Shown here: positions 12,822 through 42,199 of the stretch, piece after piece
Position numbering within the stretch: the stretch's first letter is position 1
Layout of the letters: every line of letters begins with the position of its first letter
Source of the DNA: Caldithrix abyssi DSM 13497
GTDB lineage: Bacteria; Electryoneota; AABM5-125-24; Hatepunaeales; Hatepunaeaceae
NCBI GenBank assembly: GCA_945865405.1
Contig: CAMBDS010000012.1
Coordinates: forward strand, 2,383-66,382
Length of the DNA: 64,000 bases
Reading direction: 5' to 3'
Notes under the pieces: generated by a model
Told to the model about the DNA's origin: nothing
Database searches by the model: none
Seen by the model: the letters and a program-made list of their open reading frames with translations, nothing else
Translations under genes and position numbers: made by a program

Positions 12822-12835
12822 TCCCTCTCCGTTTT

Positions 12836-17088: not shown

Positions 17089-20000
17089 TTACCGAACCAG
17101 AATTGCCTTCTGCATTCCGATAAATGCGCCGGACTGCATCTTGATCAGATAGATACCTGAGGTCTGGCCTTCGGCTGTCCAGGTCAATTCGTACTGACCT
17201 GCCTCATGACGTCCGCCGGCAAGCTGGGCTATCTTGCGACCATGCATGTCCCAGACACTGACCTCTACATCTCCCGGAGTCGGAAGACCAAACTTCAGGG
17301 TCGTACGGGCATTGAATGGATTGGGATAGCTGTTCGAGATGAAATAGTTTTCCGGCATCTCAGCGTGTGGAAGTTCTCTGATCTCGAGTCGACTCGCGGT
17401 GAACGCGAAGTTGTTGTTGGCGGCTGGAACATTGCGTTGTTGTTGAGCCACTACTAACATTCCGCGATCAACTGCTATCACTTTCCAATGAATTGTGATA
17501 TCGCGATCTCTTAGACGCTGTCCGAGTTTCACAAACAATGAATCGTTTGGAACAGGATATTGAGTCCCGCTGAGCGTGTCAAACTTAAGTGTATCCTGAC
17601 GACCCGGTATCCAAGCTCTGAACCAATAGCGCACTGAGTCAATTTCCCACTGGTTCTGGATTGCAGGCTCCCATGAGAAGACGAATGGTCCAAGTGAATC
17701 GGGGCCTTCGAAGTTGTGGTTCATTTCGGGCGTCAACAATCTGAATGCGCCACCGCCACCTGCCCGGTCGGAGGGCAGGTCGTTGATGTCAGGTGTGACA
17801 GTCACACCAAACTGCGTCGAGACAGATTCTCCAGCCCTGTCAGTCGCTGTGACGGTTACAATCGCACTGTCACCGTCAAGTGCGGCTGTGTTATAGTTGG
17901 CGGACAGTGTGCGGAACAGGGCGGTTGTACCGGCGTCAATGCGAAGACCAAACTCGGCGGGACCATCGACAGCGTATGCAAGAACATCTCCAACATCGAT
18001 ATCGCGGAACTTCAAGTTTAATCTTGCAATCTGTAGTTCGTTGAGGTTTGAATCCTCAGCGATTCGGATGTTAGCAATGTTTGGCGGCACAAAGGTCGGC
18101 GCGTCGTTAACTGGTTCGACTGTCACGTGAATGACTTCCCGGACCTCATTGGGGGCCTGAGCACGGTCACGACAATAGACCGTAATATCAAACTCACCAT
18201 TGATGTTAAGGCGAGGTTGTATGCTAACCTCTGTAGTCTGTGCGTTGTACTGAACCTGAAGATCGGCCGGTGCTGGTGCGACAACACCGAAATTGAGCTG
18301 GTCGCCTTGATCGGGGTCAACCCAGTGATTGTCGTTCAAAGTAGCAATTACTACACGATCAGCATCTTCCTGAATGACAACGTCTTCCAGTGGATTTTGG
18401 TCATTGTAAACAGGTGCATCGTTGATGCCGCGTACATTGATGGTCAAGTTGTTGATTTCGTCTGCACCACCGTCAGCATCGGCCATTCGGACAACGGTCT
18501 GGTATTGGCCGATGTCGTCAGCGGTCGGCTGCCAACTAAGAGTCGCTGTACCGTTGCGGTTATCGACGAAACGTGCTTCATCGGGCAATCCACCTCGATT
18601 AGGCATCGTCCAAACAATTTGGTCGCCCTGACTTTCAACGTCAGTACCGTTGAATTGGAGGGCGGCGTCTTGTCGTTCATCGATATTCCATACGAACTGA
18701 CCGTTGTTTTGCGGTGCAGTTATCACCGGAATATCGTTGATCGATCTGAAGCGCATGGTGAATGTGTAATCAGTGATTAGGTCTCGCACCGGAGTTTCCG
18801 AAGGATTCGAGATATTAGCCTCGAAAGCCCCAGCTGCCCCATCAACGCGACGCATATCTCGTTCAGGCGCTCCCTGCTGATTATCATTTGCCCTAAGTGT
18901 AACTCGAACATCACCGAAGAAATTAGCAGGGAGGTCGATCTGCCACCTTGGCACACCTGCGACAACCCGGTGTTCATTGGTCATGTTCGGGTTCATCGCC
19001 TGCGTTATGAAGGTTAAGGCATTTCCATCAGGATCAGTAAAGAGGTTGCGCATATCAGGAATAACAACCAGTCTTGGTGGTGCTCCTGCCATCGCCTGAT
19101 CTTCATCGAACGTGATTAAATCGTCCTGAAAGGGTTGTACCTCAGGAGCCTGATTTACATTCACAATTGTAATCATTACCGATGTGACATCTGTGATATC
19201 ACCGTTGGTTGCCTGGAAGCTGAGTACATAAGGTCTGTTACGGAATGAATTGAAGTTTGTCTCCCAGTGGAAATCGGCGGTGTTGTTGCCGTTATCCGTA
19301 AACTCAACATCACCGGCGTTTTGGGCAATTTCATCTCTGTTAAGGATCGAGAGCCGCATATTGCCCGGAGCATTGGCGATTGTGAAATGGATGTCAACAT
19401 CTTCGCCTTCACTGACCTGAACTTCACCGGGGTCTGACGCAAGAACGACAACGCCTTCGACACGAATACTGAGGAAGTTTATTGCGTCATTCTGCCAATT
19501 GAGTTCCTGGTTGTCTTCGACTTCGACTACAATATCGTCACCTTCATACTCGCGACGCTGACTGCTGTCCCAAACCTTGAGGGTCATTGCCTCACCGTTT
19601 TGGAAACCCTCAACAACAAATCGTGTTTCGGGATCGTCTCCCCATGCGGCAACGCCACAAGTACCGGGTTGTTCGACGATACCGGCTCCGGCGCAGAGAC
19701 CAGCCGTTGTGAAAACACCAATCTCGTCGCCTACTGCGGCATCAACTCCACCGAACTCAAATGGCTCGACAAGAAGGCTGTGATTCTGTGCCACGGACAT
19801 AAAGTCAAATCGACCCTGCTCAACTGAGCCGACACCATTCGGTCGGAAGGTGAACTGCGCCTGATCAGGATCGTCAGAGAAGACAGTAAGAATACCTTCG
19901 TAAGGGGCGTCTTCGGTAGGAGTAAAGGTTACATTGACATCAAGAACTTCGTCCGGTCCAAGAACTACCGCCTGATTGTTAAAATCATGCGTGTAAACGT

Positions 20001-22908
20001 TCATGTTGGAAGTGATTCTTGAGATCGTAAGATCGACACCACCAGTGTTGGAAATATGGAAAACGTGCGAGGCGCTATTGCGAGCGCGGATAGGTCCAAA
20101 TTGGAAGATCATCGGATCAACGGCGATCTGTGCTTCGACCACATCGCTATGCGCCTCTAACCTCGAAAGTACAGTTCTTGCCTGAGCTTGGAAGACTTCT
20201 GGGCCTTCTGAATATGTAGGAACACCTTCAAGCTCTTGACGGGTAGAACCATCCCAAACTAACCATGTAAAGGCTTCGCCATCAACGAAACCATCCCTAA
20301 CGGGAGTGCCACGATCGTCACCCCATGCCGCTATTCCGACTGCTCCAGCCTCATCAATGACAGTGTGACCGGCACAAAGTCCAGACTCGGTGAACAAGGC
20401 GATCTCGTCTCCAGCAGCTAAAGGAGCCTCACGATCTCCAGGCATTGTCAGGATTGCTTCATCTATAAGAAGCGAATGGTTTCCGTCAGTAATTCGGTGA
20501 TGGAAATGACTTGCTTCGTTAACGCCATCACCTTCAACCATAAAGCGGACCTCGCCGTTGTTCGGGTCGTCAGAGGTAATAATCAGGTTAGCCTGATGAG
20601 TTCCAACTTGTGCCGGATGGTAAGTAACCATCACATCGAAAAACTCGTTTGCATTGATGTTTCTCGGATTGCCTGGCCAATTCGTTGTAAAGGCGTTGGA
20701 ACCTTCCACGACGACGTTACTAAGGCGCATTAAACCACCGCCAACGTTATTGATACGCAGAGAATATGTGGCATCAACATTGAGCGGAATCGCGCCAAAA
20801 AAGTGGTTCGGTGCGCCAAGCATGATTTCAGGTTCGCGAGCAACATCGACACCGAGACCGAATAGATCAACGTAAAGGACAGAGTCCATTGGGTCATCGG
20901 ACATAATTGTCACTCGACCCTCATACTCAACGTTTTCCTCGCTGGGGGTGAAAGTAACGGTAATGTCGCGCGACTCGCCAAGCTCCAATTCGAATTCGCC
21001 ATCGAAATCGGTTGTGAATTCGTTTAAGTCGGGCTCAATACCCATGACATGGAGCGTACCACGTCCTTGATTAGAAACACTCATGACCCAATCCTCTGAC
21101 TCGCCGACTGCAACCTGACCGTAAAAGTGGTCCATCGCATTCAGAGAGATATCGGGAAGTGGATCGCCAAGGTTTGCAGAAAGTGAAAGAACTGTAACGC
21201 CTCCGTCCTCGTATGTTTCGGGCCCCATTTCAAATTCAGGATTTGCCCAAGCTTGTTCGCCGGAATTGTTATCCCAAATCATGAAGGAAAAGGCTTCGCC
21301 TTCTATAAATCCATCGACAATTTCAGTCGATTCGTCGTCGCCATAAGCGGCAATACCAGCCTGACCGTCTCGCCCTAATGCACCCGCACCAGCAAGTATA
21401 CCGGATTCAGTGAACATTGCTATTTCGGATCCTTCGTGGATGACGTTTCCTTCAAGTGACGTAGCGGTTATCAAGACCGAGTGACTTCCGCCAGTATTGT
21501 GTGCGTGGAAATTCCGGCCATTTGCTGCTACACCCGAGCCTGCAATGGGAATCATTATTTCAGGATTCTCTTCGTCATCAGTAGTTACTGTCAAAATTCC
21601 ATCGTAGAAGAATACTTCTTCGGGATTAAATGAAGTATTCACGTAGAGGTAGTCGCCGGGACGTAATCTGATGGGATCGTTGCCGAACTCAACCATGAAG
21701 GCTTCATTGTCACTGGTAACGTCGTTTACCATCAAATCGCTTCCACCAGTGTTGGTGACGACCATTCGCCACATACCGGCCTGACCAACAACAATAGCAC
21801 TGTAGAAATGCTCTGAAGCCATCACTTCGGCCGCCGCGGCACCTTCGGCCCTACCCTCTCCAGAAAGGGGAATTATGACAATATCTTCATCGGGGTCGTT
21901 GGAAGCTATGGTTAACTCAGCTTCGTAAGCTATTTGTTCGCTAGGTGTAAAAGAAACCACCACCTCGTGGCGATCTCCGGCGGCGACCTCAAATTGACCC
22001 TCGAAATCCGTTGTGAAAACATCATTATCGGTTGAGACATTGGACACAACAAGTGGTTGGTCGCCTTCATTGAAGACGAAAACTGACATGTTGCGCGTTT
22101 GGCCGACTATGACTCTGCCAAAGCGTCGTTCATTAATTAGCAACGCAATATCAGGCGGTAGAGCATCTTCTCCAACACCAACCAGATGGATGGTAACTTC
22201 ACTCATATCACGACCATCCGAAGTGATAGTGAGGTCAGCAGAAGCATCACCTGCAGCGTCGGGGGTAAATGTTACCGTAACAACCTGCGAATCGCCGTTC
22301 GCGATCTCCATGGCACCATCAAAATCGGTCGTGAATGCTTCGTTATCAGTTAAAACGCTTTCAACCGAGAGTGGCGAATTGCCGACACTTAGGATGGAAA
22401 ATTCCCAAGTGGCTGATCTGCCTATTCTGACAGCCTCAAAATCGTGCTCATTGTTGGCAACTCGGATTCTCGGAATGTCTTCACGATGAGCGGATAGGTT
22501 GCAAGCGATGAAAACGTCGCGTTGATAAATGCCTTCGCCAAAAGTCACTTCGACATCAGCATCCCATTCTTCATCAGCCTGATGATCCCAGACTTTGAAG
22601 AAAAGCTGTTCACCTTCGCGAAAACCGTTGATACCCTGCTCGTCTTGATCATCACCCCAAGCTGCCGGTCCGACAGGAAATCCTTCATCGGTAATGATTG
22701 CGGCTCCAGCCAAGATCCCAGCGGGAGTAAAAATACCTATCTCGTCATCAACAACGAGAGATTCTCCATCGAGCAGTGCCTCGTCAACAAGGACACTCAT
22801 ATTTCCTTGATTGATCGGTGGGTCCCAATGCTGTGCAAAGACTGCGGGTGCCGACGCCAGAAACAGAGCCAGCAGCAACAACGGAATTGAGTATCTAGAA
22901 CGATCCAT
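17089..22908 (-). CDS. Giant secreted surface protein G1 (1939 aa), T9SS cargo; function unknown
   Basis: GGGAGG lies just upstream of the ATG. Signal peptide MDRSRYSIPLLLLALFLASAPAVFA/Q. Four copies of the unassigned 115-aa module are interleaved with 6 Ig-like 'choice-of-anchor D'/ASH-type domains (pattern FG.V.VG....W...I.N.G...L.V......N..F..DF.....I..G....V.VTF.P......A.L.I.S.DP). These are followed by 5 cadherin-like repeats closing in NVNQAP/INDIP/INDAP/VNDAP/INDLP, a pre-CTD domain, and the tail SYPNPFNARTTLKFGLPTPGDVEVSVWDMHGR... Confidence 0.9.
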   Translation of the reverse strand: MDRSRYSIPLLLLALFLASAPAVFAQHWDPPINQGNMSVLVDEALLDGESLVVDDEIGIFTPAGILAGAAIITDEGFPVGPAAWGDDQDEQGINGFREGEQLFFKVWDHQADEEWDADVEVTFGEGIYQRDVFIACNLSAHREDIPRIRVANNEHDFEAVRIGRSATWEFSILSVGNSPLSVESVLTDNEAFTTDFDGAMEIANGDSQVVTVTFTPDAAGDASADLTITSDGRDMSEVTIHLVGVGEDALPPDIALLINERRFGRVIVGQTRNMSVFVFNEGDQPLVVSNVSTDNDVFTTDFEGQFEVAAGDRHEVVVSFTPSEQIAYEAELTIASNDPDEDIVIIPLSGEGRAEGAAAAEVMASEHFYSAIVVGQAGMWRMVVTNTGGSDLMVNDVTSDNEAFMVEFGNDPIRLRPGDYLYVNTSFNPEEVFFYDGILTVTTDDEENPEIMIPIAGSGVAANGRNFHAHNTGGSHSVLITATSLEGNVIHEGSEIAMFTESGILAGAGALGRDGQAGIAAYGDDESTEIVDGFIEGEAFSFMIWDNNSGEQAWANPEFEMGPETYEDGGVTVLSLSANLGDPLPDISLNAMDHFYGQVAVGESEDWVMSVSNQGRGTLHVMGIEPDLNEFTTDFDGEFELELGESRDITVTFTPSEENVEYEGRVTIMSDDPMDSVLYVDLFGLGVDVAREPEIMLGAPNHFFGAIPLNVDATYSLRINNVGGGLMRLSNVVVEGSNAFTTNWPGNPRNINANEFFDVMVTYHPAQVGTHQANLIITSDDPNNGEVRFMVEGDGVNEASHFHHRITDGNHSLLIDEAILTMPGDREAPLAAGDEIALFTESGLCAGHTVIDEAGAVGIAAWGDDRGTPVRDGFVDGEAFTWLVWDGSTRQELEGVPTYSEGPEVFQAQARTVLSRLEAHSDVVEAQIAVDPMIFQFGPIRARNSASHVFHISNTGGVDLTISRITSNMNVYTHDFNNQAVVLGPDEVLDVNVTFTPTEDAPYEGILTVFSDDPDQAQFTFRPNGVGSVEQGRFDFMSVAQNHSLLVEPFEFGGVDAAVGDEIGVFTTAGLCAGAGIVEQPGTCGVAAWGDDPETRFVVEGFQNGEAMTLKVWDSSQRREYEGDDIVVEVEDNQELNWQNDAINFLSIRVEGVVVLASDPGEVQVSEGEDVDIHFTIANAPGNMRLSILNRDEIAQNAGDVEFTDNGNNTADFHWETNFNSFRNRPYVLSFQATNGDITDVTSVMITIVNVNQAPEVQPFQDDLITFDEDQAMAGAPPRLVVIPDMRNLFTDPDGNALTFITQAMNPNMTNEHRVVAGVPRWQIDLPANFFGDVRVTLRANDNQQGAPERDMRRVDGAAGAFEANISNPSETPVRDLITDYTFTMRFRSINDIPVITAPQNNGQFVWNIDERQDAALQFNGTDVESQGDQIVWTMPNRGGLPDEARFVDNRNGTATLSWQPTADDIGQYQTVVRMADADGGADEINNLTINVRGINDAPVYNDQNPLEDVVIQEDADRVVIATLNDNHWVDPDQGDQLNFGVVAPAPADLQVQYNAQTTEVSIQPRLNINGEFDITVYCRDRAQAPNEVREVIHVTVEPVNDAPTFVPPNIANIRIAEDSNLNELQIARLNLKFRDIDVGDVLAYAVDGPAEFGLRIDAGTTALFRTLSANYNTAALDGDSAIVTVTATDRAGESVSTQFGVTVTPDINDLPSDRAGGGGAFRLLTPEMNHNFEGPDSLGPFVFSWEPAIQNQWEIDSVRYWFRAWIPGRQDTLKFDTLSGTQYPVPNDSLFVKLGQRLRDRDITIHWKVIAVDRGMLVVAQQQRNVPAANNNFAFTASRLEIRELPHAEMPENYFISNSYPNPFNARTTLKFGLPTPGDVEVSVWDMHGRKIAQLAGGRHEAGQYELTWTAEGQTSGIYLIKMQSGAFIGMQKAILVR
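17092..17355 (-). other. T9SS type A C-terminal sorting domain (Por_Secre_tail, TIGR04183-like) of G1
   Basis: PENYFISNSYPNPFNARTTLKFGLPTPGDVEVSVWDMHGRKIAQLAGGRHEAGQYELTWTAEGQTSGIYLIKMQSGAFIGMQKAILVR. Confidence 0.85.
17773..19455 (-). repeat. Array of 5 cadherin-like / He_PIG-type Ig repeats in G1
   Basis: Units of about 100-140 aa, each ending in a [VI]N[DQ].P linker. Acidic DPDG/D.D motifs are present (TDPDGNALTF, VDPDQGDQLNF, RDIDVGDVLAY). Confidence 0.7.
19456..19812 (-). repeat. Unassigned module, copy G1-M4
   Basis: RFDFMSVAQNHSLLVEPFEFGGVDAAVGDEIGVFTTAGLCAGAGIVEQPGTCGVAAWGDDPETRFVVEGFQNGEAMTLKVWD... Confidence 0.8.
20155..20508 (-). repeat. Unassigned module, copy G1-M3
   Basis: HFHHRITDGNHSLLIDEAIL...AAGDEIALFTESGLCAGHTVIDEAGAVGIAAWGDDRGTPVRDGFVDGEAFTWLVWD... 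Confidence 0.8.
21175..21510 (-). repeat. Unassigned module, copy G1-M2
   Basis: FHAHNTGGSHSVLITATSLEGNVIHEGSEIAMFTESGILAGAGALGRDGQAGIAAYGDDESTEIVDGFIEGEAFSFMIWD... Confidence 0.8.
22492..22830 (-). repeat. Unassigned HF/NHS/AAWGDD module, copy G1-M1 (protein-level repeat)
   Basis: HWDPPINQGNMSVLVDEALLDGESLVVDDEIGIFTPAGILAGAAIITDEGFPVGPAAWGDDQDEQGINGFREGEQLFFKVWD... It starts one residue after the predicted signal-peptide cleavage site. The C-terminal boundary is approximate. Confidence 0.8.
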
Positions 22909-23282: not shown

Positions 23283-24350
23283 CTATTTTGTGAGTGTAAG
23301 TGAAATAGTCTTTGAACCAAAAGTGGTTTCCAATCGACAATAATAATTACCAGATGGTATCCAATTAAGATTGACTGGAAGTTGATGAATGCCCGCACTT
23401 AAACCAGAATAATCAGTATAATAAATTTCCTTCCCATCCAATCCTAATACGAAAAGTCTTAAAGAGGTTTCAGTTGGCAGAGCCAATTTTATGACAGTTT
23501 GACCATTAAACGGATTAGGATAGGTTCCCAAGATTTCAAAACTTGTTGGTGCCAGGGGATCAAGTCTTACTGAAACAGGATCGTTCCAGAGCTGAATGGT
23601 CGATCTCCCGTCTATTGAAAAGTGCTCGTCGCCAAGTAATATCTGCCAATTTGTCGAATCGATTGTCAAAAATGAATCAGAAGAGAAGAAACTGAATTGA
23701 AATCCTTCACCGACCGCAAATCCTTCGACTATTCCTTCTGTTTCAGGATCATCTTCATAGGCCCATCCAGATGCTGAGTCGGAATCTATCCATATAAGAA
23801 ATCCTCCTACATCACCTTGAGCAGTACAAATCCCAACTTGATCGCCCGGGTGCGGACCAATTAACATTTCACCCGAGAAGAACTCTGCTGAAGGACAAGT
23901 GAATTTGTGACGATTTATTGTTGGATGTATATCAAAATACGGCTCTTTTGCCGCTAATTCAACTATTAGAAGGCCATTGCTGTGCCAAATTCCATCCCCG
24001 GTAAGTAGATAAATTCGCTCAAGTGATACCTCGTGCTGTTGTTCGGAGTCCCATCTGACAAAGTAAATCGAGTCACCTTCCCTAAATCCTTCGATACTAT
24101 CTCGAGTTAAGGCGTCGTCACCCCAGGCTGCAATCCCCAAAGGAAAGCCAGTTACTGCCACAGACCCACCGCATCGTCCTTCAGGTGTCAACACACCGAT
24201 TTCATCACCACCGCCCCAGATCCCACCCACATAGACTTCTCTTATCAATATGGAGCAGTTAACGTCTGTAGTATCAAAATCAAAGTGATTTGCGTAAGAG
24301 CAGATTGTTAATGAAAACATCAACATGAATGCTGCTAATATCTGTCGCAT
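23283..24350 (-). CDS. Small T9SS cargo protein S (355 aa): two copies of the unassigned module plus the sorting domain
   Basis: Signal peptide MRQILAAFMLMFSLTICSYA/N. One canonical and one degenerate module copy, then the tail GTYPNPFNGQTVIKLALPTETSLRLFVLGLDGKEIY... Only 36 nt separate it from the stop of the upstream giant gene. Confidence 0.85.
   Translation of the reverse strand: MRQILAAFMLMFSLTICSYANHFDFDTTDVNCSILIREVYVGGIWGGGDEIGVLTPEGRCGGSVAVTGFPLGIAAWGDDALTRDSIEGFREGDSIYFVRWDSEQQHEVSLERIYLLTGDGIWHSNGLLIVELAAKEPYFDIHPTINRHKFTCPSAEFFSGEMLIGPHPGDQVGICTAQGDVGGFLIWIDSDSASGWAYEDDPETEGIVEGFAVGEGFQFSFFSSDSFLTIDSTNWQILLGDEHFSIDGRSTIQLWNDPVSVRLDPLAPTSFEILGTYPNPFNGQTVIKLALPTETSLRLFVLGLDGKEIYYTDYSGLSAGIHQLPVNLNWIPSGNYYCRLETTFGSKTISLTLTK
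23286..23549 (-). other. T9SS type A C-terminal sorting domain of S
   Basis: PTSFEILGTYPNPFNGQTVIKLALPTETSLRLFVLGLDGKEIYYTDYSGLSAGIHQLPVNLNWIPSGNYYCRLETTFGSKTISLTLTK. Confidence 0.8.
23586..23939 (-). repeat. Unassigned module, degenerate copy S-M2
   Basis: ...GEMLIGPHPGDQVGICTAQGDVGGFLIWIDSDSASGWAYEDDPETEGIVEGFAVGEGFQFSFF... This copy keeps GD.[IV]G, G.A.EDD and GF..GE but lacks the HF/NHS start. Confidence 0.55.
23952..24287 (-). repeat. Unassigned module, copy S-M1
   Basis: HFDFDTTDVNCSILIREVYVGGIWGGGDEIGVLTPEGRCGGSVAVTGFPLGIAAWGDDALTRDSIEGFREGDSIYFVRWD... Confidence 0.8.
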
Positions 24351-24386: not shown

Positions 24387-27300
24387 TTAACGTAGAAGGA
24401 CTAACTTTTCTGTTGCCATCGATTGGCCGACAATAATTTCCAACCAGTAAATACCGGTGGGCAAAGTTACTGCGTCGATAGTATATGTATGCCAACCGGC
24501 TTCAAGCTGAGTCTCGCTCATCGACCAAACTACTCTTCCCTGCAGATCAATAAGGCGAGTCGATGCCTTGCCGAGTATTGGCAAACCAAATCGAATTGTT
24601 GTTCTACTGTTGAATGGATTCGGATATGTCGGGGTTAGGGTAAGAACTGAGGGGATCTCGACCTGAGTTGCTTTGAGGGAAATAGCTTCAAAACCATCGG
24701 TGCTAAACTTGAGGACTCTCTCGTCTGATTCGAATTGGGCGATAACATTATTCACCTTAACCGCAAGAATAGCAAGTAGTTCATCATCAACAGCTCCATC
24801 GATTTCAAAGGTTAATGTATCATCACCTCTAACAATAAGTCCGGCGGGAAGCGAAGACAGTGAGCCACGCCCAACTGTTTGACCACTCCTTTTGGAAACA
24901 GCGACAAGCGATACATCATTTCCAAGAAAGCTTGCGGGAGCATCAGTCACAAGCAAACTCATGTCGGATCCGGTACTTCTCGCTGACTGTAAATTTGGCA
25001 CTATTGAGAGTGGAGCTATTTGTTGGCGGTTCTCCTCATCCTGATACACAAGTTCTGTCCGGCGGTCAACCTTGATCTTATAGCCTTCCCCCGGAATAAG
25101 TGATTCAATTCCGAAGTAGCCGAATCGAGGTGCGATAAAATCACCCACGCCATTTTTAGCCAGGAGAAGCGATTGCATTATCCCCTCGAGCCCAATGCGA
25201 GGGTCAATTGGGTGATCGAGAAGGTAGCCTACTGTGTTCCAGCCCAATGAAAGTGGGATTGGGGTATCGAACTCTATCTTTCTTCCGGTCACAACCAGGC
25301 TATCATCCTCGTTGACATTGACCTGATAACCGTGCAATGGATTCCATGGACCCAAACCGTTATAATCGAAGCGCGTTGTCCAAAATCTTCCCAATCCGTC
25401 CTTTACTATAACAAGGTGCTCCCTATCCCGGATTTCGCTAAACATGATTGGTACTTCAAGTTCAAAAGGTACGACATAGCTCGATATCAAATTCCAGCCT
25501 CTCGCGAGTCTGATCACATGTCGATCTGGATCACGAACAACCAATCGTACCTCAACCTCATCATTATCACGAAAATGGAAATCGCCTGTTACATATTCAA
25601 CTTCCGGGTGGTATTCTTCATTACTGCCAGAATCCCAGATAACGAGTGCCATTGAATCGCCTTGGGAAAATCCGTTGTCACCACCATAGGCTATGAATTC
25701 AGCAGGCGCTTCAACCCATCTGACGACTCCTCCAACTTGACCTCCAGGTGTGATCGCCGCAATTTCACTCCCTACCATGAGATCGCTTCCGTAGAAATCA
25801 ATAGAGAGAACGTGAATGTTTGAACGATTTTCTGTGACTTCAGGGTTGTCAAAATGGCGAAAACCGGAAACAATCTCAAGAGATACGTGCAATGATGCAA
25901 CAGTGCCATCGAAGGACCTGACCATGATATCAGCTTCATAAACATCGTTTTCCTCAGCGCCGGGCGGAACTTCGAAATCTATGGTTAACTCCTGAGTACT
26001 CTCTGACGCTAACTCTCCTTCGATTGGGTTTATCGTGATCCAACTAACTCTCGGGTTTAGTTCAACGCCGAGTAGGTGTTGCGAATCCCTTCCGACAACA
26101 ACTCCCATTATCCAGCGATTGGCGTCCCAACTTCCAGTTACGAAGAGTCCAGTAGGAGGTCCTACAAATTGAAGTTCGGTCTCCTCGATGACGCCACGCT
26201 CTGGATTTGACCGATAAATCTTTGTACCGCCGTCTGGCTCAAGATTGGCCACATATAGCGGAAGATCATCCGGATCGCCCGGATTCCATCCAAAACCATA
26301 TACTCCTGTAAGTCCGTGGCCATCCCATTCCTGGAGCACATCTCCGTCTCGATCTACCAGATACCAAGGCAAATCGTATTCCCCGCACCAAAACGCATCA
26401 GGCTCGGAGCTATAAGCAAGCGCGCGATTGACAGTTAGTGGTGCTCCCGGTTGGACGCGATGGAGTTGCCCATCCACGGTGATCGCATAGATACTGTCAT
26501 TTTGTGAACCGTATAGGTATGTTCCATCCCAAGCAAGATCTCGAAGCCCCCAGCCAACTCGATTTGCTTGTGGTTGCGCAAATTGTCGAACCAGTACTCC
26601 ATCACGATTGAGTACTGCAATCGAGAGTCCTCGTATCGGGTCGCCGCTCGTCACGAAGATCTGGTCAGCAGCATACTCGGCTCCCATTATCCGTTGCAAT
26701 CCGGTTATGGCTGTTAAATCGTGATCGAAATTAATGTCTCCCTGCTGATCACGCAGTGGATCTGTCTCGGTTGTGCCTCTCAGTGACCTGGTTCCACTGT
26801 CCCGGTTGGGCACCTGATTCATAAGACGAAGCACGTACGGAATCGAGATTTCGCTCTCGTTTCGGAGAGTAGTGTTGACAGTCAGACGGTCATTGCCACC
26901 AAGTGCAACCTCAAGCCCCTGATCACTGAAAGTGACCAAAGGACGATAAAGCTCAAAATCGACTCGAATGTTGTCACGAGCACGAAGCACCGTTTCGATC
27001 ACATCGGCTTGGTAACCCGCAAGAGTTGCGGAAAGATTTGTAAATCCTGGAACAAGGCCAATTAGGTTGTAATTTCCTTGCTGGTTAGTCTGGGTTGAAA
27101 CCCGCCCATTTGAAACCTTCACACCGGCTAAAACTTGGCCGTTTTGATCTCGAGCCACTCCAAAAATTTGAGCGGCGACAGGCGGCGCACCTCCCCAGAC
27201 AACAAAGTCATCAAGAAACCAACCAGAGTACCAATCTATGGCATTATCTGTTTTGAACAACCAACGAAACCTAAGCGCCTGACCCTGATAGTCTGAAAGA

Positions 27301-33223: not shown

Positions 33224-33307
33224 GCATCCTCAAAAACTATCTCGTATTTTTCGGGGTCAATTCTCAAACTAGTAGCTTACACTACAGCATTGAAAGGGAA
33301 AAGAGCT

Positions 33308-33364: not shown

Positions 33365-36300
33365 CTACTTCAACATTGCACCTTTGACAATGTGACGCTC
33401 ACCATTTACTTGCAATACGAACAAGTAGATACCAGCTGAATTTCCTATGCCATCCCAGGAGAATTCATGCGTACCAGCTTCAAATCGCCCTTCAGTGATA
33501 GTTGCGATTGTCCGTGCGTGCATGTCATAGACATTCAGCTTCACATCTCCGGCATTGGGTAAGGAGAAACTAAGTTTGGTCTCGGGATTGAACGGATTTG
33601 GGTAATTTTGACTAAGAGATATTTCGGTCGGAAGTAATCTCTCTTCACCCGGTGCACTGAGTGGGGGGACGATAACGGTGCGTCTCTGGTTTGACTCACG
33701 CACCACCTGACCGTCTGAGACCTCTACCCACCATCTTATTTTGAGCGAATCTTCAAGACCAACCAAGGCGACTAAAGTATCCAGGCCAGAGATTGAGAAT
33801 GAAGTATCGGCTAACAGGCCTGAACGGAAGGTGCTGTCGATTGGTGCATCGATAAGTGCGAAGACAATCGAGTAGCGCAATTGATCGTTATCGTCATCAG
33901 AGGATCTGTTCCATCTAAAAGTACCTCGATAGTTTGCAAGGACTGCCATATCGACCGGCAAACGTAGATCGAAGCCATTCGGGTTGTCGTTAACTGGCCT
34001 CACAGTTACCCTGAACTGCTGGTTGACCTGCGCAGCCCCATCAGTCGCCGTTACTGTAATGACTACTCCGGCAGCCAGGTTGAAGTTGGCAATAGGGTTT
34101 ATGAACAATATATTACCATTCTCCAAACCCATCCCTAACTGCTGCGGAGCCCCGGCAAAGCCAAACTGCAATGCGTTATTATCTGGATCGGTAAAAAATT
34201 GCCTCAAGTCGGCAATATCAAACCTACCTTGATCTTCATCGACATCTACATCACCAATTTGGCCTTGTCGAACAGGAGGTCTGTTGACATTATTGACTGT
34301 AATCTCAACATTTATTACGTCAGTTAAACCGGATGCATCGCGTGCCTGGAAGACACCAACATAGGGATCTTGTCGTGCATCATTAAAGCCGGGAGTCCAG
34401 ATGAAGTTGGCGCGACCGTCACCAATGTCATTGAACTGCCAACCCTGAGGCATGCCACCGTCATCGATCAACTGCCAACCAATATTATCATCGTCTGGGT
34501 CAGCAGCAAGAAAGGCGACACGAAGCTCTGAGTTCTCGTCAACATTAACTCGAAATACTGCTTGATCACTCGGCTGTGAAATTACGGGAGCACGATTAAG
34601 GTTTGAGACAGTAATTTCGACCACGATTTCATCCCTGCCATTGTCTGCATCCGTTGACCTGAAGCGAGGAGTATAAGCCTCTCGACGTGCGTCGAATGGG
34701 ACATTCCAATCGAAGCGAGCCATATTGTTCTGGTTGTCGGTAAACTGCCACCCGTTCGGCAACCCACCAGCATCAACTAACTCCCAGACCGAATTGCCAC
34801 CATCAGGGTCGGTTGAGCGGAAATCGACTATCAGTCGTTGTCCTTCTTCTACTGCAACTCTATGTACATCAGCATTTGCCGGTTCAGTGATGACGGGATT
34901 TCGATTGACGTTTGCGACCGAAATTGCTAAACGCAATTGATCGTTGGCACCCGCAGCATCCGTAGCAACAACCAACGGAGTATAAGCTTGACGGCGAGCG
35001 TCGAACGGCGGCGTCCAAAGCAATGTCGCCGTACCATCCCTATGATCTGTGAATTGGAAGCCGTTTGGCATACCACCAGCATCTGGCATTGTCCAGACGA
35101 TTCCGTCCGCATCCGCATCATCGGCACCGAAGTCGATTCTTAGCTCAGCATTCTCATTTACGTTAATCTGGAAGTTATCTTCACGGGTAGGTTCTGAGAT
35201 TTCGGGAGCACGATTGAAATTATTAATGGTAATTGTTACTTCGAGATCGGCAACAGCTCCAGCTCTATCCTCCACCCGGAACACTGGTCGATAAACTCCT
35301 GCATCTTCGAAATCAGTAGCCCAAACAAAGGTACCCTCTGGACCTTCATGGTCGAAGGTTGCCCCTTGATTCGTTACGCGATCCGGTATCCGAAGGAAGA
35401 TCTCGAGTTCATCTCCTTCATGAGCAAGATCGAAATCGTCAGCGTGAAGGGCGAACTCGATTCGCTCACCTTCACGGACTGTAACTTCACGCACAGGATT
35501 GACCCAGAACGGTTGGTCATTCAATGGATTGACTGTCAAGACGAAAGTATCTTCAATCCGGAATTCATTGTCTTCTGCACTGACTACAATATTAAACGCG
35601 CCGTTGATCCGATCGGCGGGAAAGACAGAGAGGATGCCATTGTTGATTGCAGCACCAAGAGCGTCATCTGCGATGACTCCATAGACGACGTTATCACCAT
35701 CAGGGTCATTGAAGAACTGTGAAAGAGTGAAGAGGTCGGTTCTGTTTGCATCTTCATCGATATCAGTGTCCGGAAGCCCTTGAGCTCTTGGCGGTCGATT
35801 GACGTGGTCTATGCGGAATGAGACCCTTGCATCAGCCGATTCAGCGTTATCGTTAATACGGAAAGTAGCTGCATAATTACCTGCATCGTCAAATGACGGG
35901 CTCCATGTAAATGTAGCTGTTCCGTCGTGATGGTCTGTCAGGGTTGCTGCCTGTGGCAGGTTCGAATTGATCAAAGAAATAACAAGATTGTTATTGTCCG
36001 GATCAGAACCAGTTACAACGAAACGTACTTCACTGTTTTCACGCCCATTAACCTGTTCAGGGACGTCGTTCCAAACTGGCGGACGATTAACATTGGTGAC
36101 TGTCACCATAACGGCAGAGCGAGTCGTTAGCTCTCCGTCACTGACAACCAGTTCACCTCTATACTCACCAGCGTCTGTGAAACCTGTCATCCAGAAAAAG
36201 GATCCACGACCGCTGCCGTGATCCTCAAGAGTGGCTGACTCGGGGAAATTGCCTCGTTCGAAAGTAAGAGTTAGTCCATCTGAGTCGATATCAGATGCCT

Positions 36301-39300
36301 GTACGTCAAATTCGACAGAAGCATCTTCGTCGATCTCAATAACCTCGGCAGGTACATTCTCCCAAATAGGAGCGTCGTTAACCGGCAATACCGTCACTGT
36401 AAACGATTCGCCGATTTCATCGTCACGATTAGCCTCGCGCTCTATTGGATTCAAGAGAGCGGTTGTTCTTAGGTGACGGGAGGCTTGAGAATTCGCCGAG
36501 GATGAAAGCCCTTGTAATGCGTTCGCACGAAAAGCGGCTATAGCGACATTTCTTCCGTCATCTGCCGTAACTGTGACTTCACCATTACCAAAGAAGTTCA
36601 TCGCAGGGTTTATCCAAAGAACCCCTTCTTCATCGATGGCAGGCCTCAAGTCTTCGTTTCCAGAGACATCAAAGCTGAGTTGGTCGCTATCGGGGTCAGA
36701 GAAGACATCATTTAGATCAGCAACACGAGTCGCACCAGCGTCTTCATTGATTTCCAAATCATCGATCGGGTCAACGACGACCGGGGCTCTGTTTACATCG
36801 ACTACTGTCGCTTCTACATCAACTGACACGTCGCTCATAATCTCGTTGTCGCTTAAGAGATGGAAACGAATTACGTAGCTTCCTGCATCGTTAAACATCG
36901 GATTCCATACAAAGGAGGCAGTGCCGTCCTCATGATCGATAAACTCCGGAGCAATTTCTGGATTGGAGCCGATAAATTCAAACCCCATCTGGAATGCATC
37001 GCCATCGACATCCATTCCGACGACTTCAAAGCGTAGTTCTGTTCCCTCATCGAGACGAATTTCAGCCGGATAATCAACAAATTCCGGAGGAGCATTCACA
37101 TTAGATACAACTATTGTGACTTCGATCTCGGCTTCCATTTCACCATCATTAACCACAAATAATGGAGTGTATTCACCTGCATCGAGATAGTCGGTATCCC
37201 AAGTGAACGTCCCGGTACCGTCACCGTGATCAACGAATGTTGCTTGAAGCTCTAACTCACCGTTGATCATTCGCAACGAGAGTTGATCTTGATCTGAATC
37301 GGTTGCAGTCAACGTAAACTCTACGCGCGCTCCCTCAGAGCCTTGTACCATCTCAGGAGCATCAACCCAAACAGGAGCGTGATTCGGGTTAAATCCTGAG
37401 CCAATCAATGTGACTACAACTCTCGGTTCATTTCTGTCATTCGACATGACGATAAGTTCATCGTTGTAATCAATAGGTTCTTCAGGAGCGAAAATCACAG
37501 AGTAAGTTACTGCTTCTCCAGGATTTACAGTAACTTCGCCTTCGAAGTTGATGCTGAAAGGAGCATCGATATCACCGATGCTTAAAATCCTCAGAGCAGC
37601 AGTACCTCGATTTGTAATGACAAACTCCCAGCTCGCAGATTCTTCGACCGAGACTCTACCGAAATTGTGCGCAAGTTGAAGATCAATTTCCGGCTGTGGA
37701 AGAGTGTAAAGGTCGAGTGTAAGCACAGTAAAACCGTTCGGAGAGTACTCTGCAGGTCCCTCTTCGATAATCGATTCGACTCCTGAATACTCACGAGAGG
37801 CTGAGGCATCCCAATAACGGAACATCATTCTCTCGCCATTGGCGAAACCTTCAACCGGCTGGGTGTCAAGATCATCACCCCAAGCGCCGAACCCGAATGG
37901 CTGGTCGCCTAATTCTTGAAGGATTGCAACTCCAGCGCAGATATCGTTTGTTGTGAAAGCAGCAACTTCATCGCCAATCGCTAATGGCTCCTCATTAAAT
38001 ATAGCTGAAAGCACCAATATTGAATGATTAGCGTTTGTAATGGTATAGAAAAAATGGCCTTGACCTTCTGGCGTTGTCGAGCTCAACGTTAATACCGAGA
38101 ATGCATCTCGATGGTATATTCCTTCACCTTCATCATAGCTCGGAATCGCTTCAAATTCTGCGCGAAGCTCAGGAAGCCAAATTCGATAAAATAGAGCTTC
38201 GCCTTCGGTAAGACCTTCTACAATATCTCCTGTATTGGCATCGTCACCCCAGGCCGCCAAGCCGAACGAATACTCTTCTATACGAACCGATCCTGCGGTA
38301 ACGCCATTGGTCGTAAAAACTCCAACTTCCGCCCCTATTGGCAATCTTTCGCCATCGAGAGTCGCATCATCGATCAACAACGACATATTGCCGTCCGTCT
38401 GTTGAAACCGCCAATGGAGCGGGGATGCGACTGCTGAACCTACCAAAGAAATCTGAACCTGACCGTTGTCAGGATCATTGGAATCGAACATAAGAGTTGA
38501 TTGATAATCCCTGACTTCGGAAGGAGCGAATGTAACGTCAAGGATCATTGCCTCACCAACACCTACCTCAAAGCCTGCATCTGGTTCGATTTCGAAGCCA
38601 TCTCCATCAAAAGTCGGTGCTTCAACAGTGAGGATACTCCCACCGACATTAGAGATGGTCAGACGCCATGTTTCCCGTTCCCCAACTCCGATTTCACCAA
38701 ACAAATGTCGATTACTTGAAAGTACAATTTGCGGAGGAGATGGAATTACGCCAATTCCACTCAAATCAACCACGACTTCGTGATTGCCGAATGCATCTGA
38801 GGTTATTGTTAGGACACCAGCAAACTCACCAGCTTCCTCAGGATTAAAAGTTACTTCGATCTCAGCAGAGGCTTCAGATGCAATAACAAACTGACCGTCG
38901 AAATTCGTCACGAACGGACCATCGCTTACGACCATATCCTCTATTGTCAACACGCCATCACCAATGTTTGAAATGCTAAGCATCGCCGAGCGAGATTCAC
39001 CGCGCAACACAGTACCAAAGTTGAGATAATCTGCTCCGAGCGCAATCAAAGGTGTCGCTTCTCGTCGTGAGTTAAGTGAAACAACAGCAAATCCATTGGA
39101 TTGATAACGGCCATCACCGACCTCATAGTCAGCGATTGCGCCGTATTCCCTACCTGAAGATTGATCCCAAATTCTCCACTCGATTTCTTCGCCTTCACGA
39201 AACCCATCAGGGCCTTCCTGGTTGTTATCTTCTCCCCAAGCTGCTACACCAACGGGCCATTCGTCTGTCAAGAGTGTCGCCCCCGCACAGAATCCGGAGG

Positions 39301-42199
39301 GTGTAAAGACCGCAACTTCATCACCCGCAACAAGGCGATTACCTTCAAAGCTGGCATCCTCTAGAATGATTGACATGTTTTCGGCGGTGATAACAAACTC
39401 GAAGTGTTCACCTTCCGGGATTGCGCGACCTGATAACCTAATCATCGTTTCCGGTTCGTCTGGATCATCTGTGAAGAGAGTCGCTGTTCCGCCAAATTCA
39501 CCTACCTGATCTGGAGCGAATGTTACCAAAATTTCAAAGCCTTCATTTGGTGCAACAACAATACCCTCTTGGAAATCAGTGCTAAAACCAGCACCTTGAA
39601 CGACCACTCGGGAAACATTCAGGTTGGCAAGTCCAACGTTCATGCCTTCGATGTTAACTGTCCGCTCTTCGCCAACAAAGAGAGCCTCAAAATCAATGAT
39701 ATCGTTGGCAATCTCAATGTTTGGTAATCTTTCGAGCACACCCCGACCGATTACTCGAATTTCATATTCTGGAACGTCTGCATCATTCGAGAAAACAGTT
39801 AGTATTCCATTGTAATCCATTTCTTCTTGTGGGGAAAATACAATGGGAAGCATTGCCGAAGCTCCAGGATCAATTGCCATTCCTTGATCAATATCCGCCA
39901 TGAATGCGCCAATATTTGATGCTACGTGATCAATCTCAAGGGGCAGCTCACCAAAATTTGAAACTCTTAACTCAGCTCGTACTCCTTCTCCGATAAAAAC
40001 TTGACCAAAATCGTGAGCAGGTGTATCGAGATTTGGTGTGTAACCGCCAGCGGCCTCTACGAAAATATTTGCGCCACGTTCGCGCCCTGATCCCCAAAGC
40101 TCAATGATGTAAACTGGTGTTTCAGGATCGTTCGAATTCACACGAAGAGTAGAATTAAATTCACCCACCTCCTCCGGCGAAAATGAGACTGTAAATTGTG
40201 AGCTTTGGCCGCTATTGAGCGAGAACTCGTCAGGTTCAAATGAATAATATTCAGAACCTGCGCCGCCTACAATTTCCAGATTGCCCTCTAGGCGAGAGAC
40301 ACCATCATTAGTAATTTCAAATCTGTTTTCGACGGAATTCCCGATGGCAATTTCACCGAAATCCAAAGTGTTCACACTTACAGTAATAATTGGAGGTTCA
40401 GGAGTACCTCTTCCTGAGAGAGGTATTTCAAATTCTGGAGAATCAGGGTCGTTGGAGCTGATCAACAGGGTCCCATCATAGTCAACGAAATCGGTAGGTT
40501 CGAAAGTAACCTCGATTTCTATGGATCCGCCTGGTTGAATTACGGTTTCAAGAGCATCTTCTGGCTGGCGTTGATTACCACCAGCTAAGTTTAGTATCGT
40601 CAAGCCATCCCGTGCATATGCTAATTCCCCCTGGATAATATCTGGACGGGTTGCAATCTCTCTTCGACTGGAAAGATCCCAATACTTTAATGTTATGGCT
40701 TCTCCATTTCGCAAACCATTGATTCCAACCTCATTAATGTCATCACCCCAGGCAGCCACTCCGACAGCTTCACCAGGATCCGTGATTATCACAGCTCCCA
40801 CACAAAGACCCGCGGGGCTGAAGGCACCAATTTCATCGTCAACATCAAGTGCCTCGCCATTCAACAATGATTCAAGTATTAGAAGTGAATGATTTCCATC
40901 TGTTTCAGCAAATCTGAAATGAGGACCGTCCGGTAATTCCTCTTCGTAATCAGTGGTAAATACTCCATCGTCGGTTTCAACACCAGTTATTCCCAGTGGT
41001 TGATCTCCACTGTTCATTACAGTAACTGTAACTGTTCGGATATTCCCAACTACGATATTTCCAAAGTTGATATTATCTGGATCTGCTTCAATATTGGGTT
41101 GAGGAGGTATGAACCCAGTGCCGCTGAGTGAAACTTCGACTTCTGATTCGTCTGGGTCATCTGAAACTACAAATAAAGTAGCTGCAAAATTCTCTTCCGA
41201 TCGTGGGTCAAAACGAACTTGATAAACGGCATCATTCCCGGCACCGATTGTCCTTTCACCGTCGAAGTTGACCGTAAATCCATCACCTTCGATATTCATA
41301 GAACTGATGGTCAGGTCACTATTTCCAGTATTGGCGATAGTTAAATCCCTGGAAGTAGGATGGCCTAGCTCGACTTCACCAAAGTTGAATTGTAGAGGAT
41401 TGACTGAGATATCAGGAATGCGTTCTATAGTCCCATTTCCAATGAGTCTTATCACGACATCGCCATGTTCAGCATTAGAAACTATTGTTAAAGTTTCAGA
41501 GTAATTTCTTTCTTCAACAGGACTGAAAGTAACTGTCACAGTAGATCCTTCGCCAGGTTCAAGCGACAAACCGTTTTCGGGAAAATTTGTTGTAAATTCT
41601 CCAGAACTTGTCGTCATGCTTTCAATCTCAAGCGGGTCAATGCCACCATTTCCAATTGTGATTACCCATGCTTGAGATTCATCAACAAGCACATTTCCGA
41701 AATCGTGCGACATCTGATCGCCGCCACCCTGCCCAAGAACGTTATCGCCTTCCCGAATTACAACGACAGGTGGTCCTTCCAATGTTCCTTCCAAGCTGAG
41801 GATCGTAAACGCGTCTCGCTCGTAACCTTCGGGACCAAAATCGAATGTAGGGTTCGCAGTAAATTCGTGGTTAGTTGTCCGATCCCAAAAACGGAATGCA
41901 AACCGCTCACCAGCTCTGAACCCGTTAACCCCTGCCTGATCTTGATCGTCGCCCCAGGCGGCGATGCCAATCGACTCCCCGCCATTCTGTTCATAAACTA
42001 AAGCACCAGCGCAAACTCCACCTGGAGTGAAGACTCCAACCTCATTACCTGCTTCGATAAATTCTCCGTTTACTCGAGATTCCTCGACTAAAAGAGAGTG
42101 GTTGCCTTGATTTACATCAAAACGGAAGTGTTGTCCAAAAGCATTCGTAGATGCGATTGCAATAAGGACAAGTGCATAAATTGTAATAGTTCGGCGCAT
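33365..42199 (-). CDS. Giant secreted surface protein G3 (about 2944 aa from the preferred start), T9SS cargo; paralogous in architecture to G1
   Basis: Preferred start is the ATG at 42199 ([23 protein letters not shown] signal peptide, AGAGGAA upstream), not the track start at 42379. Five copies of the 115-aa module are interleaved with about 10 'choice-of-anchor D'/ASH-type Ig domains. These are followed by 11 cadherin-like/He_PIG-type repeats, a pre-CTD domain, and the tail [32 protein letters not shown]... Confidence 0.9.
   Translation of the reverse strand: [2944 protein letters not shown]
33368..33634 (-). other. T9SS type A C-terminal sorting domain of G3
   Basis: [89 protein letters not shown]. 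Confidence 0.9.
33980..37387 (-). repeat. Array of 11 cadherin-like / He_PIG-type Ig repeats in G3
   Basis: Units of about 95-138 aa, each closing in NVNAPP, VNRAP, VNDAP, NVNRPP, VNRPP, LNDQP, FNRAP, VNRNP, LNRAP, VNRPP or VNDNP. Recurrent internal pattern: ...F.V.A.D.D.D.L........P..A.F.DHGDGT..F.W.P...DAG.Y. Confidence 0.7.
37712..38056 (-). repeat. Unassigned module, copy G3-M5 (directly tandem to M4)
   Basis: [83 protein letters not shown]... Confidence 0.8.
38081..38416 (-). repeat. Unassigned module, copy G3-M4
   Basis: [80 protein letters not shown]... Confidence 0.8.
39071..39406 (-). repeat. Unassigned module, copy G3-M3
   Basis: [81 protein letters not shown]... Confidence 0.8.
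40583..40921 (-). repeat. Unassigned module, copy G3-M2
   Basis: [82 protein letters not shown]... Confidence 0.8.
41789..42130 (-). repeat. Unassigned module, copy G3-M1
   Basis: [83 protein letters not shown]... It starts one residue after the predicted signal-peptide cleavage site. Confidence 0.8.

Follow-up and report, generated by a model that had tools for sequence, protein, structure and literature searches.

A recurrent, predicted all-beta module of giant type IX secretion cargo proteins, without a significant match in Pfam, NCBIfam or the PDB

In a 64,000-nucleotide stretch of DNA from an assembly labelled Caldithrix abyssi DSM 13497 (GenBank GCA_945865405.1, contig CAMBDS010000012.1, positions 2,383 to 66,382; hereafter the window), four large, adjoining open reading frames (ORFs) follow one another head to tail, all on the minus strand. 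We refer to them as genes A (17089-22908, 1939 aa), B (23283-24350, 355 aa), C (24387-33110, 2907 aa) and D (33365-42199, 2944 aa). A module of about 115 amino acids recurs 13 times in their products, five times in D, four in A and twice each in B and C, and we are highly confident that it represents a real domain family absent from the curated libraries searched (Pfam, NCBIfam and the PDB). The module is best read as an ancient, autonomous, all-beta extracellular domain, borne by surface proteins that members of the Fibrobacterota-Chlorobiota-Bacteroidota (FCB) group export through the type IX secretion system (T9SS). Taken as a whole, our best explanation, a laterally displayed binding knob on T9SS stalk proteins, has in our judgement about an even chance of being correct. 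What is new is a domain family of a well-known type, one more repeat module of giant secreted surface proteins, and not a new kind of system.

Module copies were located by phmmer and jackhmmer within the four proteins, seeded with the first copy of D. As an independent check that avoids circularity, we also searched with a hidden Markov model (HMM) built from copies of other organisms only, which recovered 12 of the window copies at E values of 3.7e-42 to 1.7e-15 and the last, C2, at 2.3e-5. All copies lie on the minus strand; the E values below are those of this foreign-only HMM unless stated, and residue numbers in C and D are counted from the mechanical ORF start rather than from the ATG. 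In D, the first copy (D1, 41771-42130, residues 84-203, E=3.7e-39) follows the signal peptide (…NAFG/Q-HFRF), and D2 (40565-40921, residues 487-605, E=3.6e-37) and D3 (39053-39406, residues 992-1109, E=3.7e-42) precede a tandem pair, D4 (38063-38416, residues 1322-1439, E=2.8e-36) and D5 (37703-38056, residues 1442-1559, E=1.5e-38). Protein A carries A1 after …AVFA/Q-HWDP (22474-22830, residues 27-145, E=8.8e-39), followed by A2 (21160-21513, residues 466-583, E=4.2e-35), A3 (20140-20508, residues 801-923, E=8.5e-37) and A4 (19453-19812, residues 1033-1152, E=6.4e-34). B1 again stands behind the leader, after …CSYA/N-HFDF (23940-24287, residues 22-137, E=1.9e-32), and is joined by a degenerate copy, B2 (23577-23939, residues 138-258; phmmer E=2.2e-4, foreign-only HMM E=1.7e-15). 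Protein C contains a divergent copy, C1 (25530-25856, ORF residues 2460-2568; phmmer E=0.0021, foreign-only HMM E=4e-18), and the most divergent one, C2 (24657-24989, ORF residues 2749-2859), which was found with the iterated profile and has a counterpart at the same position in the Caldithrix orthologue (E=9.6e-5).

Pairwise identity among the ten good copies ranged from 28 to 46% (mean 37%), and B2, C1 and C2 were 18-34% identical to the other copies. Similarity at the DNA level was confined to patches of 32-68 nt, at 60-75% identity, over the conserved motifs; these are therefore old repeats at the protein level. An earlier note on this DNA, made from the sequence alone, had described a module of this size repeated at least 12 times across the four genes as old protein-level rather than recent DNA repeats, and the computed homology and the DNA comparison bear this out. 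Its counts of five, four and two for D, A and B were right, but C holds two divergent copies rather than one, and its estimate that the best pairs are identical at roughly half of positions was somewhat high against the computed maximum of 46%.

We then compared the module with sequence and structure libraries. Searched at E<=10, the 13 window copies gave three unrelated single matches in Pfam-A (2025) and no match in NCBIfam (release 20, 2026), and scans of the whole proteins with both libraries placed no family on the module regions. For a diverse set, genome loci and the best 150 relatives supplied 648 near-full-length copies, which were thinned to 128 with less than 42% mutual identity and joined by D1 to make 129. 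In Pfam-A these 129 copies produced only sub-threshold matches to PUA and PUA_3 (seven and four members, respectively) and singletons, and neither they nor the 13 window copies matched a Pfam carbohydrate-binding module (CBM) or lectin family. The best PUA match (PF01472; E=9e-4) scored 19.5 bits against a cut-off of 24.8 and aligned module positions of about 13-47 with positions 18-53 of the 74 in PUA. Because this match covers about half of the PUA profile and falls below the cut-off, we regard the likeness as a shared local hairpin; no PUA structure appeared among the Foldseek PDB matches listed. Profiles of the 13 and the 129 sequences, run against PDB sequences with hmmsearch, both gave 3imo, an 'integron cassette protein', as their best match (E=0.09 and 0.31); this is not significant, and 3imo was not in the best 50 of the 263 Foldseek PDB matches (E<=10).

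The AlphaFold2 model of D1, made with the 13-copy alignment, was all-beta and confident (mean predicted local distance difference test score, pLDDT, 95.3; predicted template modelling score, pTM, 0.88). With this model, none of the Foldseek matches to the PDB (best query template modelling score, TM, 0.40) or to BFVD (best 0.50) reached E<=0.001. The weaker matches were assorted beta-sandwiches, namely aegerolysins, FlgD, pVHL, transthyretin, CnaB and a CarboxypepD_reg-like phage protein, the last at a probability of 0.93 over 65 columns with a root-mean-square deviation of 2.6, and not significant. Derivation from a diverged flanking immunoglobulin (Ig)-like domain was likewise rejected: aligned by hhalign with 14 Ig domains of the window, the 129-copy profile gave 0.4% probability over 15 columns. 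A jackhmmer search from the CarboxypepD_reg copy of protein C found no further copies. Names given to relatives by NCBI come from their other domains ('choice-of-anchor D domain-containing', 'T9SS type A sorting domain-containing'), and no description of the module was found in the literature on choice-of-anchor D, Calditrichota type IX secretion or giant T9SS adhesins. The earlier note had been unable to match the module to any known family and had suggested a beta-rich fold, proposing that a copy be modelled and compared with known structures and that a significant profile match to a characterised domain would end the claim of novelty. The modelled fold is all-beta, as anticipated, and Pfam-A, NCBIfam, the PDB profile searches and Foldseek against PDB and BFVD were all without a significant match.

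The family is large. Among 1.84 billion cluster representatives (50% identity), HMMER found 6,833 matches at E<=1e-3, 3,147 at E<=1e-10 and 550 at E<=1e-30, with up to 15 module copies per protein. The range of genomes was sampled with a degenerate DNA pattern for WGDD…GF..GE in GTDB species genomes, followed by an HMM check. Among the matches listed, 93 of the 114 pattern loci encode the module by HMM and 21 are false; all 93 confirmed loci come from metagenome-assembled genomes (MAGs). Their labels include Calditrichaeota/Caldithrix, KSB1, Bacteroidales, Flavobacteriales, Cytophagia, Saprospiraceae, Chitinophagales, Ignavibacteriales, Melioribacteraceae, Kapaibacterium, Cloacimonadota, Hatepunaea and Rhodothermales, with one Planctomycetota and a few doubtful labels. 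The six loci of named isolates among the matches listed, including Nocardia mexicana, two Phyllobacterium species and Halobacterium bonnevillei, were all false positives (a Bifidobacteriaceae isolate and the RUG377 Bacteroidales record were left out of this count). Some single MAGs carry many module genes, with at least six loci in the Calditrichaeota bin co234_bin30 and at least five in one Bacteroidia MAG.

Domains that accompany the module are adhesin-type. In 52 shorter relatives the commonest partners were the T9SS sorting domain (30) and HYDIN-type Ig domains (18), and in 40 ORFs from diverse MAGs they were Por_Secre_tail (17), SprB repeats (7), Big_9 (7), cadherin-like (6), PKD (4), fn3 (4), BACON_2 (4) and CHU_C (3) domains. 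No catalytic family was among the 25 commonest partners in either set.

The D1 model has seven strands (10-20, 30-34, 40-45, 54-60, 78-83, 88-98 and 107-115). Their arrangement was assessed by covariation, using mean-field direct-coupling analysis of 622 distinct copies (effective number of sequences, Meff, 600) and counting strand pairs among the top 120 couplings. Strand neighbours formed a ring, 4-1-7-6-5-2-3. The pairs are beta1-beta4 (9 couplings, orientation not clear), the hairpins beta2-beta3 (8) and beta5-beta6 (7), antiparallel beta2-beta5 (8, r=-0.89), beta6-beta7 (8, r=-0.72) and beta3-beta4 (3, r=-0.96), and parallel beta1-beta7 (7, r=+0.70). The parallel course of beta1 and beta7 would place the C-terminus at the pole of the N-terminus, referred to here as the second pole.

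Conservation was calculated from 665 copies in the best 150 proteins and is given by HMM position; D1 residue numbers are one higher from about position 50 (W58 is W59 in D1). The most conserved residues are G42 (98%), G69 (97%), F34 (86%), W81 (83%), D29 (82%) and F70 (82%), followed by C40 (79%), G98 (78%), T7 (77%), E74 (75%) and E88 (74%), then W58 and G59 (71% each), D60 (69%), D61 (61%), T64 (57%) and N10 (53%). Position 11 is His in 53% and Met in 24%; the window copies have His, Met or Cys there. Across diverse phyla, about 20 positions are kept at 70% or more. Coupled to one another are residues 7-11, positions 35-42 in the turn between beta2 and beta3, 58-61 at the end of beta4, 64-74 in the long loop between beta4 and beta5, and 99-105 in the loop between beta6 and beta7; among these couplings are 59-102, 9-102, 41-70, 60 with 64, 67 and 68, 36-71, and 7 with 61 and 68. 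Couplings of 1-2 with 30 and of 29 with 83 and 84 lie at the opposite pole, where indels and variable positions gather in loops 20-27 and 47-52.

From covariation and the predicted strand order, nearly all conserved residues would meet at one pole, the set there comprising T7, N10, W58-G-D-D61, T64, D68-G-F70, G73-E74, G98, the aromatic residue 102 and N105. The motifs WGDD and GF..GE are predicted to come together at this pole, which fits a putative binding site such as the earlier note had proposed for them. Motif residues are alike in tip and internal copies, which is what a shared function of all copies would lead one to expect. Three other conserved features pair differently. His1-Phe2 goes with Glu30 (265 and 277 copies) and x-Trp2 with Tyr30 (84 copies); His11 goes with Ser/Thr108 (299 copies) and Met11 mostly with Ala/Leu/Val108 (84 copies; Ser/Thr in 39); and Cys40 goes with Phe34 (466 copies), with Leu, Val or Ile otherwise at 40. 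Judged from these sequence pairings, His1, His/Met11 and Cys40 are structural pairs, through packing or hydrogen bonding, and not metal ligands. Covariation of Asp60/Ala60 with position 67 was considered as a sign of a relocated ligand and not used for a metal site, because two loop-length variants, DDPxTxxVDGF and AEQNxDNGF, explain it.

The module is carried by proteins with the marks of secretion and anchoring. Proteins A to D each have a predicted N-terminal Sec signal peptide, visible in the sequence as a hydrophobic leader, and a C-terminal match to the T9SS sorting domain (Por_Secre_tail/TIGR04183), as predicted T9SS type A cargo would. The matches in A (C-terminal domain, CTD, residues 1861-1934, window 17107-17328, minus strand) and C (24399-24626, minus strand; Por_Secre_tail E=7.2e-9, residues 2870-2945, and TIGR04183) pass both curated cut-offs, and B falls just below both. 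In D the region (33395-33604, minus strand, residues 2926-2995) matches Por_Secre_tail at E=6.8e-4, with 20.3 bits against a cut-off of 27, and FlgD_ig above its own cut-off (30.8 bits against 27, residues 2933-2983). Both A and D consist mostly of HYDIN/ASH/DUF1573-type Ig-like domains (NCBIfam 'choice-of-anchor D') with Big_9 and cadherin-like repeats. Four modules of A alternate with one to three Ig-like domains ahead of a Big_9/tandem-95 tail and the CTD, and five modules of D alternate with Ig-like domains ahead of a Big_9/cadherin-like tail and the sorting domain. The domain maps of these two proteins thus agree with the alternation of modules and Ig-like blocks described earlier, with one to four Ig-like domains between modules and one tandem pair, D4-D5. 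Tandem module copies are joined by linkers of 0-2 residues. Protein B is minimal, being a signal peptide, two modules and the sorting-domain match.

The place of the first copy is equally characteristic. In 86 of the 150 best-scoring relatives it starts by residue 45, and 74 of these 86 begin with Met and have the first module position projected at or before residue 45. Leaders in those 74 typically end …A/G-Q, and the module His comes next or follows with at most some five residues in between (QE, QDPE, QPE and similar). Signal peptidase I follows the -3/-1 rule, so cleavage is expected after A or G, leaving Q or N at +1. The eight B orthologues have an invariant Ala, one variable residue and then HF or YF. 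Cleavage is thus likely at AVFA/QHW (A), NAFG/QHF (D) and SYA/NHF (B), with His at +2 of the mature protein; the first copy does lie at the mature N-terminus, as first proposed, but the site is probably one residue earlier than was stated, so that His is +2 and not +1. The tip copy of the Caldithrix A orthologue starts DFYDPP and has no His. Gln at +1 is the 'Q-rule' described for Bacteroidetes, which according to PMC5837995 is not valid for the whole FCB group; pyroglutamate formation in these proteins is therefore only a possibility.

These observations suggest how the module might be displayed. As known from Porphyromonas gingivalis, type A cargo of the T9SS is tethered to the outer membrane by its C-terminus, and so the copy after the signal peptide would stand at the distal tip, with the remaining copies spaced along the stalk of Ig-like domains. 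The chain would enter and leave each copy at the pole opposite the conserved residues, from which we infer a side knob, its conserved acidic and aromatic face turned outward, rather than an in-line bead. That face would be ligand-binding, most plausibly for a glycan or other polymer surface and helped by bound Ca2+, with D60, D61, D/E68 and E74, T7, N10, T64 and N105, and W58, F70 and the aromatic residue 102 as candidate site residues. The host proteins would then act as multivalent adhesins. We judge the chance that the module is a binding or adhesive unit to be slightly below even, and Ca2+-assisted glycan binding in particular to be distinctly doubtful.

Several points weigh against this proposal. 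A ligand cannot be read from sequence, and the clustering at one pole, like the placing of both termini at the other, comes from covariation and predicted strand order rather than from measured distances. W58, F70, W81, F34 and C40 may be mere core residues, and conserved Gly/Asp loops can be structural turns or fold-stabilizing Ca2+ sites. Among the commonest partners there is no catalytic domain, such as a glycoside hydrolase, that would point to a substrate, and the acidity of the module is not specific, because the whole proteins are acidic (pI 4.05-4.45). There is also a slim chance of a distant link to a known beta-sandwich superfamily, for instance a prealbumin-like one, which we take up below.

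The module could instead be a structural element of the fibre, whose Asp/Glu loops would take up Ca2+ just to make the domain or its junctions rigid, in the manner of cadherins or of the BIg domains of the giant adhesin SiiE, with nothing external bound. The module is one bead among many beta-sandwich beads, its host proteins are acidic overall and cadherin-like domains are among its partners. A precedent also exists, since Ca2+ stiffening is documented for SiiE (PMC5466336). Against this, covariation suggests both chain ends at the same pole, an arrangement that suits a side knob better than a spacer that adds length; conservation of the module is also far higher and more loop-centred than that of the flanking Ig domains. 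A pure spacer would also not readily account for the tip position in 86 of 150 relatives, or for a protein as minimal as B, in which two modules are joined only by a sorting signal, and we consider this alternative unlikely.

Alternatively, copies may pair with one another or with a partner domain, linking proteins A to D, fibrils or cells into a coat or aggregate. The presence of the module in all four adjacent genes, in an order kept in a Caldithrix MAG, the individual MAGs with many module genes and the short linkers of tandem copies would all suit such a protein-protein unit. Yet the same conserved surface is found from Bacteroidota to Calditrichota and among paralogous copies, which fits a common small or polymeric ligand better, and no distinct partner domain was identified. 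Nor did the full-length AlphaFold2 model of protein B (mean pLDDT 70, pTM 0.52) show confident packing between modules; with this model Foldseek found generic multi-sandwich chains only (query TM <=0.23). We hold mutual pairing to be quite unlikely.

A further alternative bears on novelty rather than function: the module might be a hidden, very diverged member of a known beta-sandwich superfamily, in particular of the prealbumin/transthyretin-like group that includes CarboxypepD_reg, Cna-B and starch-binding modules. The prealbumin/transthyretin-like fold is a seven-strand Greek-key sandwich with sheets D-A-G and C-B-E-F, A being parallel to G. In the module, beta1 between beta4 and a parallel beta7, together with the run beta3-beta2-beta5-beta6, recalls this transthyretin-type Greek key. 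The weak Foldseek matches included transthyretin, CnaB-type domains, the pVHL beta domain and the CarboxypepD_reg-like phage protein, and protein C itself has CarboxypepD_reg domains. Against membership, no Foldseek match reached E<=0.001 and none exceeded a query TM of 0.40 in the PDB or 0.50 in BFVD, no Pfam prealbumin-like model matched any of the 142 copies at E<=10, and the strong beta6-beta7 pairing (8 couplings) is unlike classical transthyretin. We give hidden membership a slim chance, and even if true it would be a likeness of fold class, not membership of a family.

Finally, a copper or other metal domain built on the leading His, His/Met/Cys11 and Cys40, one version being a histidine brace at the mature N-terminus like that of lytic polysaccharide monooxygenases (LPMOs) or CopC, is highly improbable: most copies open with His, any of the three residues may stand at position 11 of the window copies, Cys40 is kept at 79% in proteins with otherwise almost no Cys, and the first copy follows the signal peptide, but the covariation pairs and the expected cleavage site disfavour it, His falling at +2 to +6 by the -3/-1 rule rather than at the free N-terminus, the majority of copies are internal, the A orthologue has a tip copy without His, and no LPMO (AA9-AA17), CopC or cupredoxin matched in Pfam or among significant PDB matches. 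GbpA (8gul) appeared in Foldseek only at E=0.21 with a query TM of 0.29.

Protein C differs in build from A and D, combining InhA-like MAM and CarboxypepD_reg domains with a C-terminal cassette of module, element X, module and CTD. Element X (24990-25529, minus strand, ORF residues 2569-2748), which separates C1 from C2, is about 180 residues of two 'GWN…' half-repeats with motifs of the 'GWNLIS / GWNTVGY' type and has no Pfam match. Among the 150 relatives, blastp places it directly behind a module in no fewer than 30, and the succession module-X-module-sorting domain is a recurrent C-terminal cassette. The part of C after the signal peptide (…VYVSSNGMIGFGP…; window 32700-33110, minus strand) matched no Pfam model at E<=0.01, and most of residues 1-640 and about 2100-2460 also have no Pfam assignment. 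Proteins A to D are very acidic (pI 4.05-4.45; 13-17% D+E against 5-7% K+R) and nearly free of Cys, with 5-8 Cys per 355-3004 residues, several of them the conserved module Cys.

Gene A was assigned from its ORF and domain scans. For C and D, the mechanical TTG starts lie 41 and 60 codons upstream of the signal-peptide ATGs (33111-33233 and 42200-42379, minus strand), and hydrophobic leaders open at internal ATGs, MRRF… at residue 42 of ORF 24387-33233 (C) and MRRT… at residue 61 of ORF 33365-42379 (D). The ATG starts are supported because the full lengths of relatives are 2905 and 2941/2942 aa. The C orthologue in the Caldithrix MAG has 2905 aa, and a full-length relative of D (P0011, 2942 aa) shows 57% identity beginning at residue 61 of D. 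A relative of A (P0019, 1934 aa) is full-length at 59% identity, and no close relative of A was found among GTDB species representatives. Protein B has eight orthologues (36-100% identity), including one of 56% in the 'uncultured Caldithrix sp.' MAG GCA_964355675.1. This MAG shares with the window the gene order D-C-B-A-aldehyde dehydrogenase-epimerase-Wzi, and module positions are unchanged in its orthologues, which are 56-59% identical; this makes a Calditrichota bacterium the probable source of the window.

Gene A is followed directly downstream, on the same strand (window 5466-16971, minus strand), by a set of polysaccharide genes of Wzx/Wzy type: aldehyde dehydrogenase, NAD-epimerase, Wzi, Wzz/GNVR, Wzy_C (O-antigen ligase/polymerase family), flippase, GT2, GT9 and a Bac_transf priming transferase. 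The adjacency of A, Aldedh, epimerase and Wzi recurs in the Caldithrix MAG. We speculate that this set could supply the anchoring glycan of type A T9SS cargo. In the Caldithrix MAG a called 42-codon ORF (L115/L116, 17314-17442) separates the aldehyde dehydrogenase gene from the orthologue of gene A; the spacer in the window is 16972-17088. Upstream of D (window 42380-64000) all genes are on the same, minus, strand and housekeeping-like, including those for an NMO-family oxidoreductase, a peroxiredoxin, a periplasmic binding protein, a Peptidase_MA_2 protein, PriA, a UbiE-type methyltransferase, an ABC ATPase, a split transketolase, CDP-diglyceride synthase, dihydroorotate dehydrogenase, a TPR-TonB_C protein, IMP dehydrogenase and a PASTA-domain protein. 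Among the window ORFs scanned with Pfam, none was seen to encode T9SS machinery.

In FCB-group bacteria from sediment, water column and gut, thousands of giant surface proteins carry the module and are annotated only by generic Ig-like or sorting domains, and defining the family would improve the annotation of at least 6,800 protein clusters. As a small, confidently predicted domain with an apparent compact conserved face, it is an easy target for structural and binding work. Should it bind a glycan or a surface, it would show how uncultured T9SS-bearing bacteria, and the SprB-type gliding adhesins that bear the module, grip their substrates; should it be only a Ca2+-stabilized bead, it would be a routine new domain family. 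More broadly, and tentatively to the point of doubt, the module might be a structurally distinct ligand-binding knob that serves T9SS-anchored fibrils, SprB-like gliding adhesins among them, as their principal means of surface recognition in Bacteroidota and the uncultured phyla Calditrichota, KSB1, Ignavibacteria and Cloacimonadota; tip and periodic display together would allow it to attach multivalently, and with Ca2+, to a polymer or mineral surface common in the environment.

Among known systems, the module resembles PUA in its local 'L..GD.I.V….G..(I/V)G.G' hairpin; PUA domains are intracellular and RNA-related. With the prealbumin/transthyretin sandwiches it would share seven strands, a beta1 flanked by beta4 and a parallel beta7, and the beta3-beta2-beta5-beta6 run, whereas its long conserved beta4-beta5 loop and the beta6-beta7 pairing that closes the ring set it apart, and there is no sequence relationship. 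The flanking choice-of-anchor D and HYDIN-ASH-DUF1573 Ig-like domains occur in the same proteins and are similarly sized, all-beta and repeated, but the module differs in its strand order with parallel beta1 and beta7, in its motifs, and in the 0.4% probability of homology. Like CBMs and Ca2+-dependent lectin sites, it is an all-beta unit of about 115 residues present in multiple copies on extracellular proteins, with a pole rich in conserved Asp/Glu, Asn/Thr and aromatic residues; unlike them, it matches no Pfam CBM or lectin and has no glycoside hydrolase or lyase among its commonest partners. A further parallel is with the ligand domains of giant adhesins, such as the lectin-type domain of RemA, a T9SS adhesin of Flavobacterium, and the part of ice-binding RTX adhesins that binds the ligand. 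From these it differs in having no sequence or significant structural similarity to them and in occurring up to 15 times along the stalk rather than once. Like the tip and side domains of giant adhesins, however, it is a small non-Ig module on the long Ig-like stalk of a secreted, cell-anchored protein, placed at the end far from the membrane anchor and found together with SprB repeats and cadherin-like, PKD, fn3 and T9SS sorting domains.

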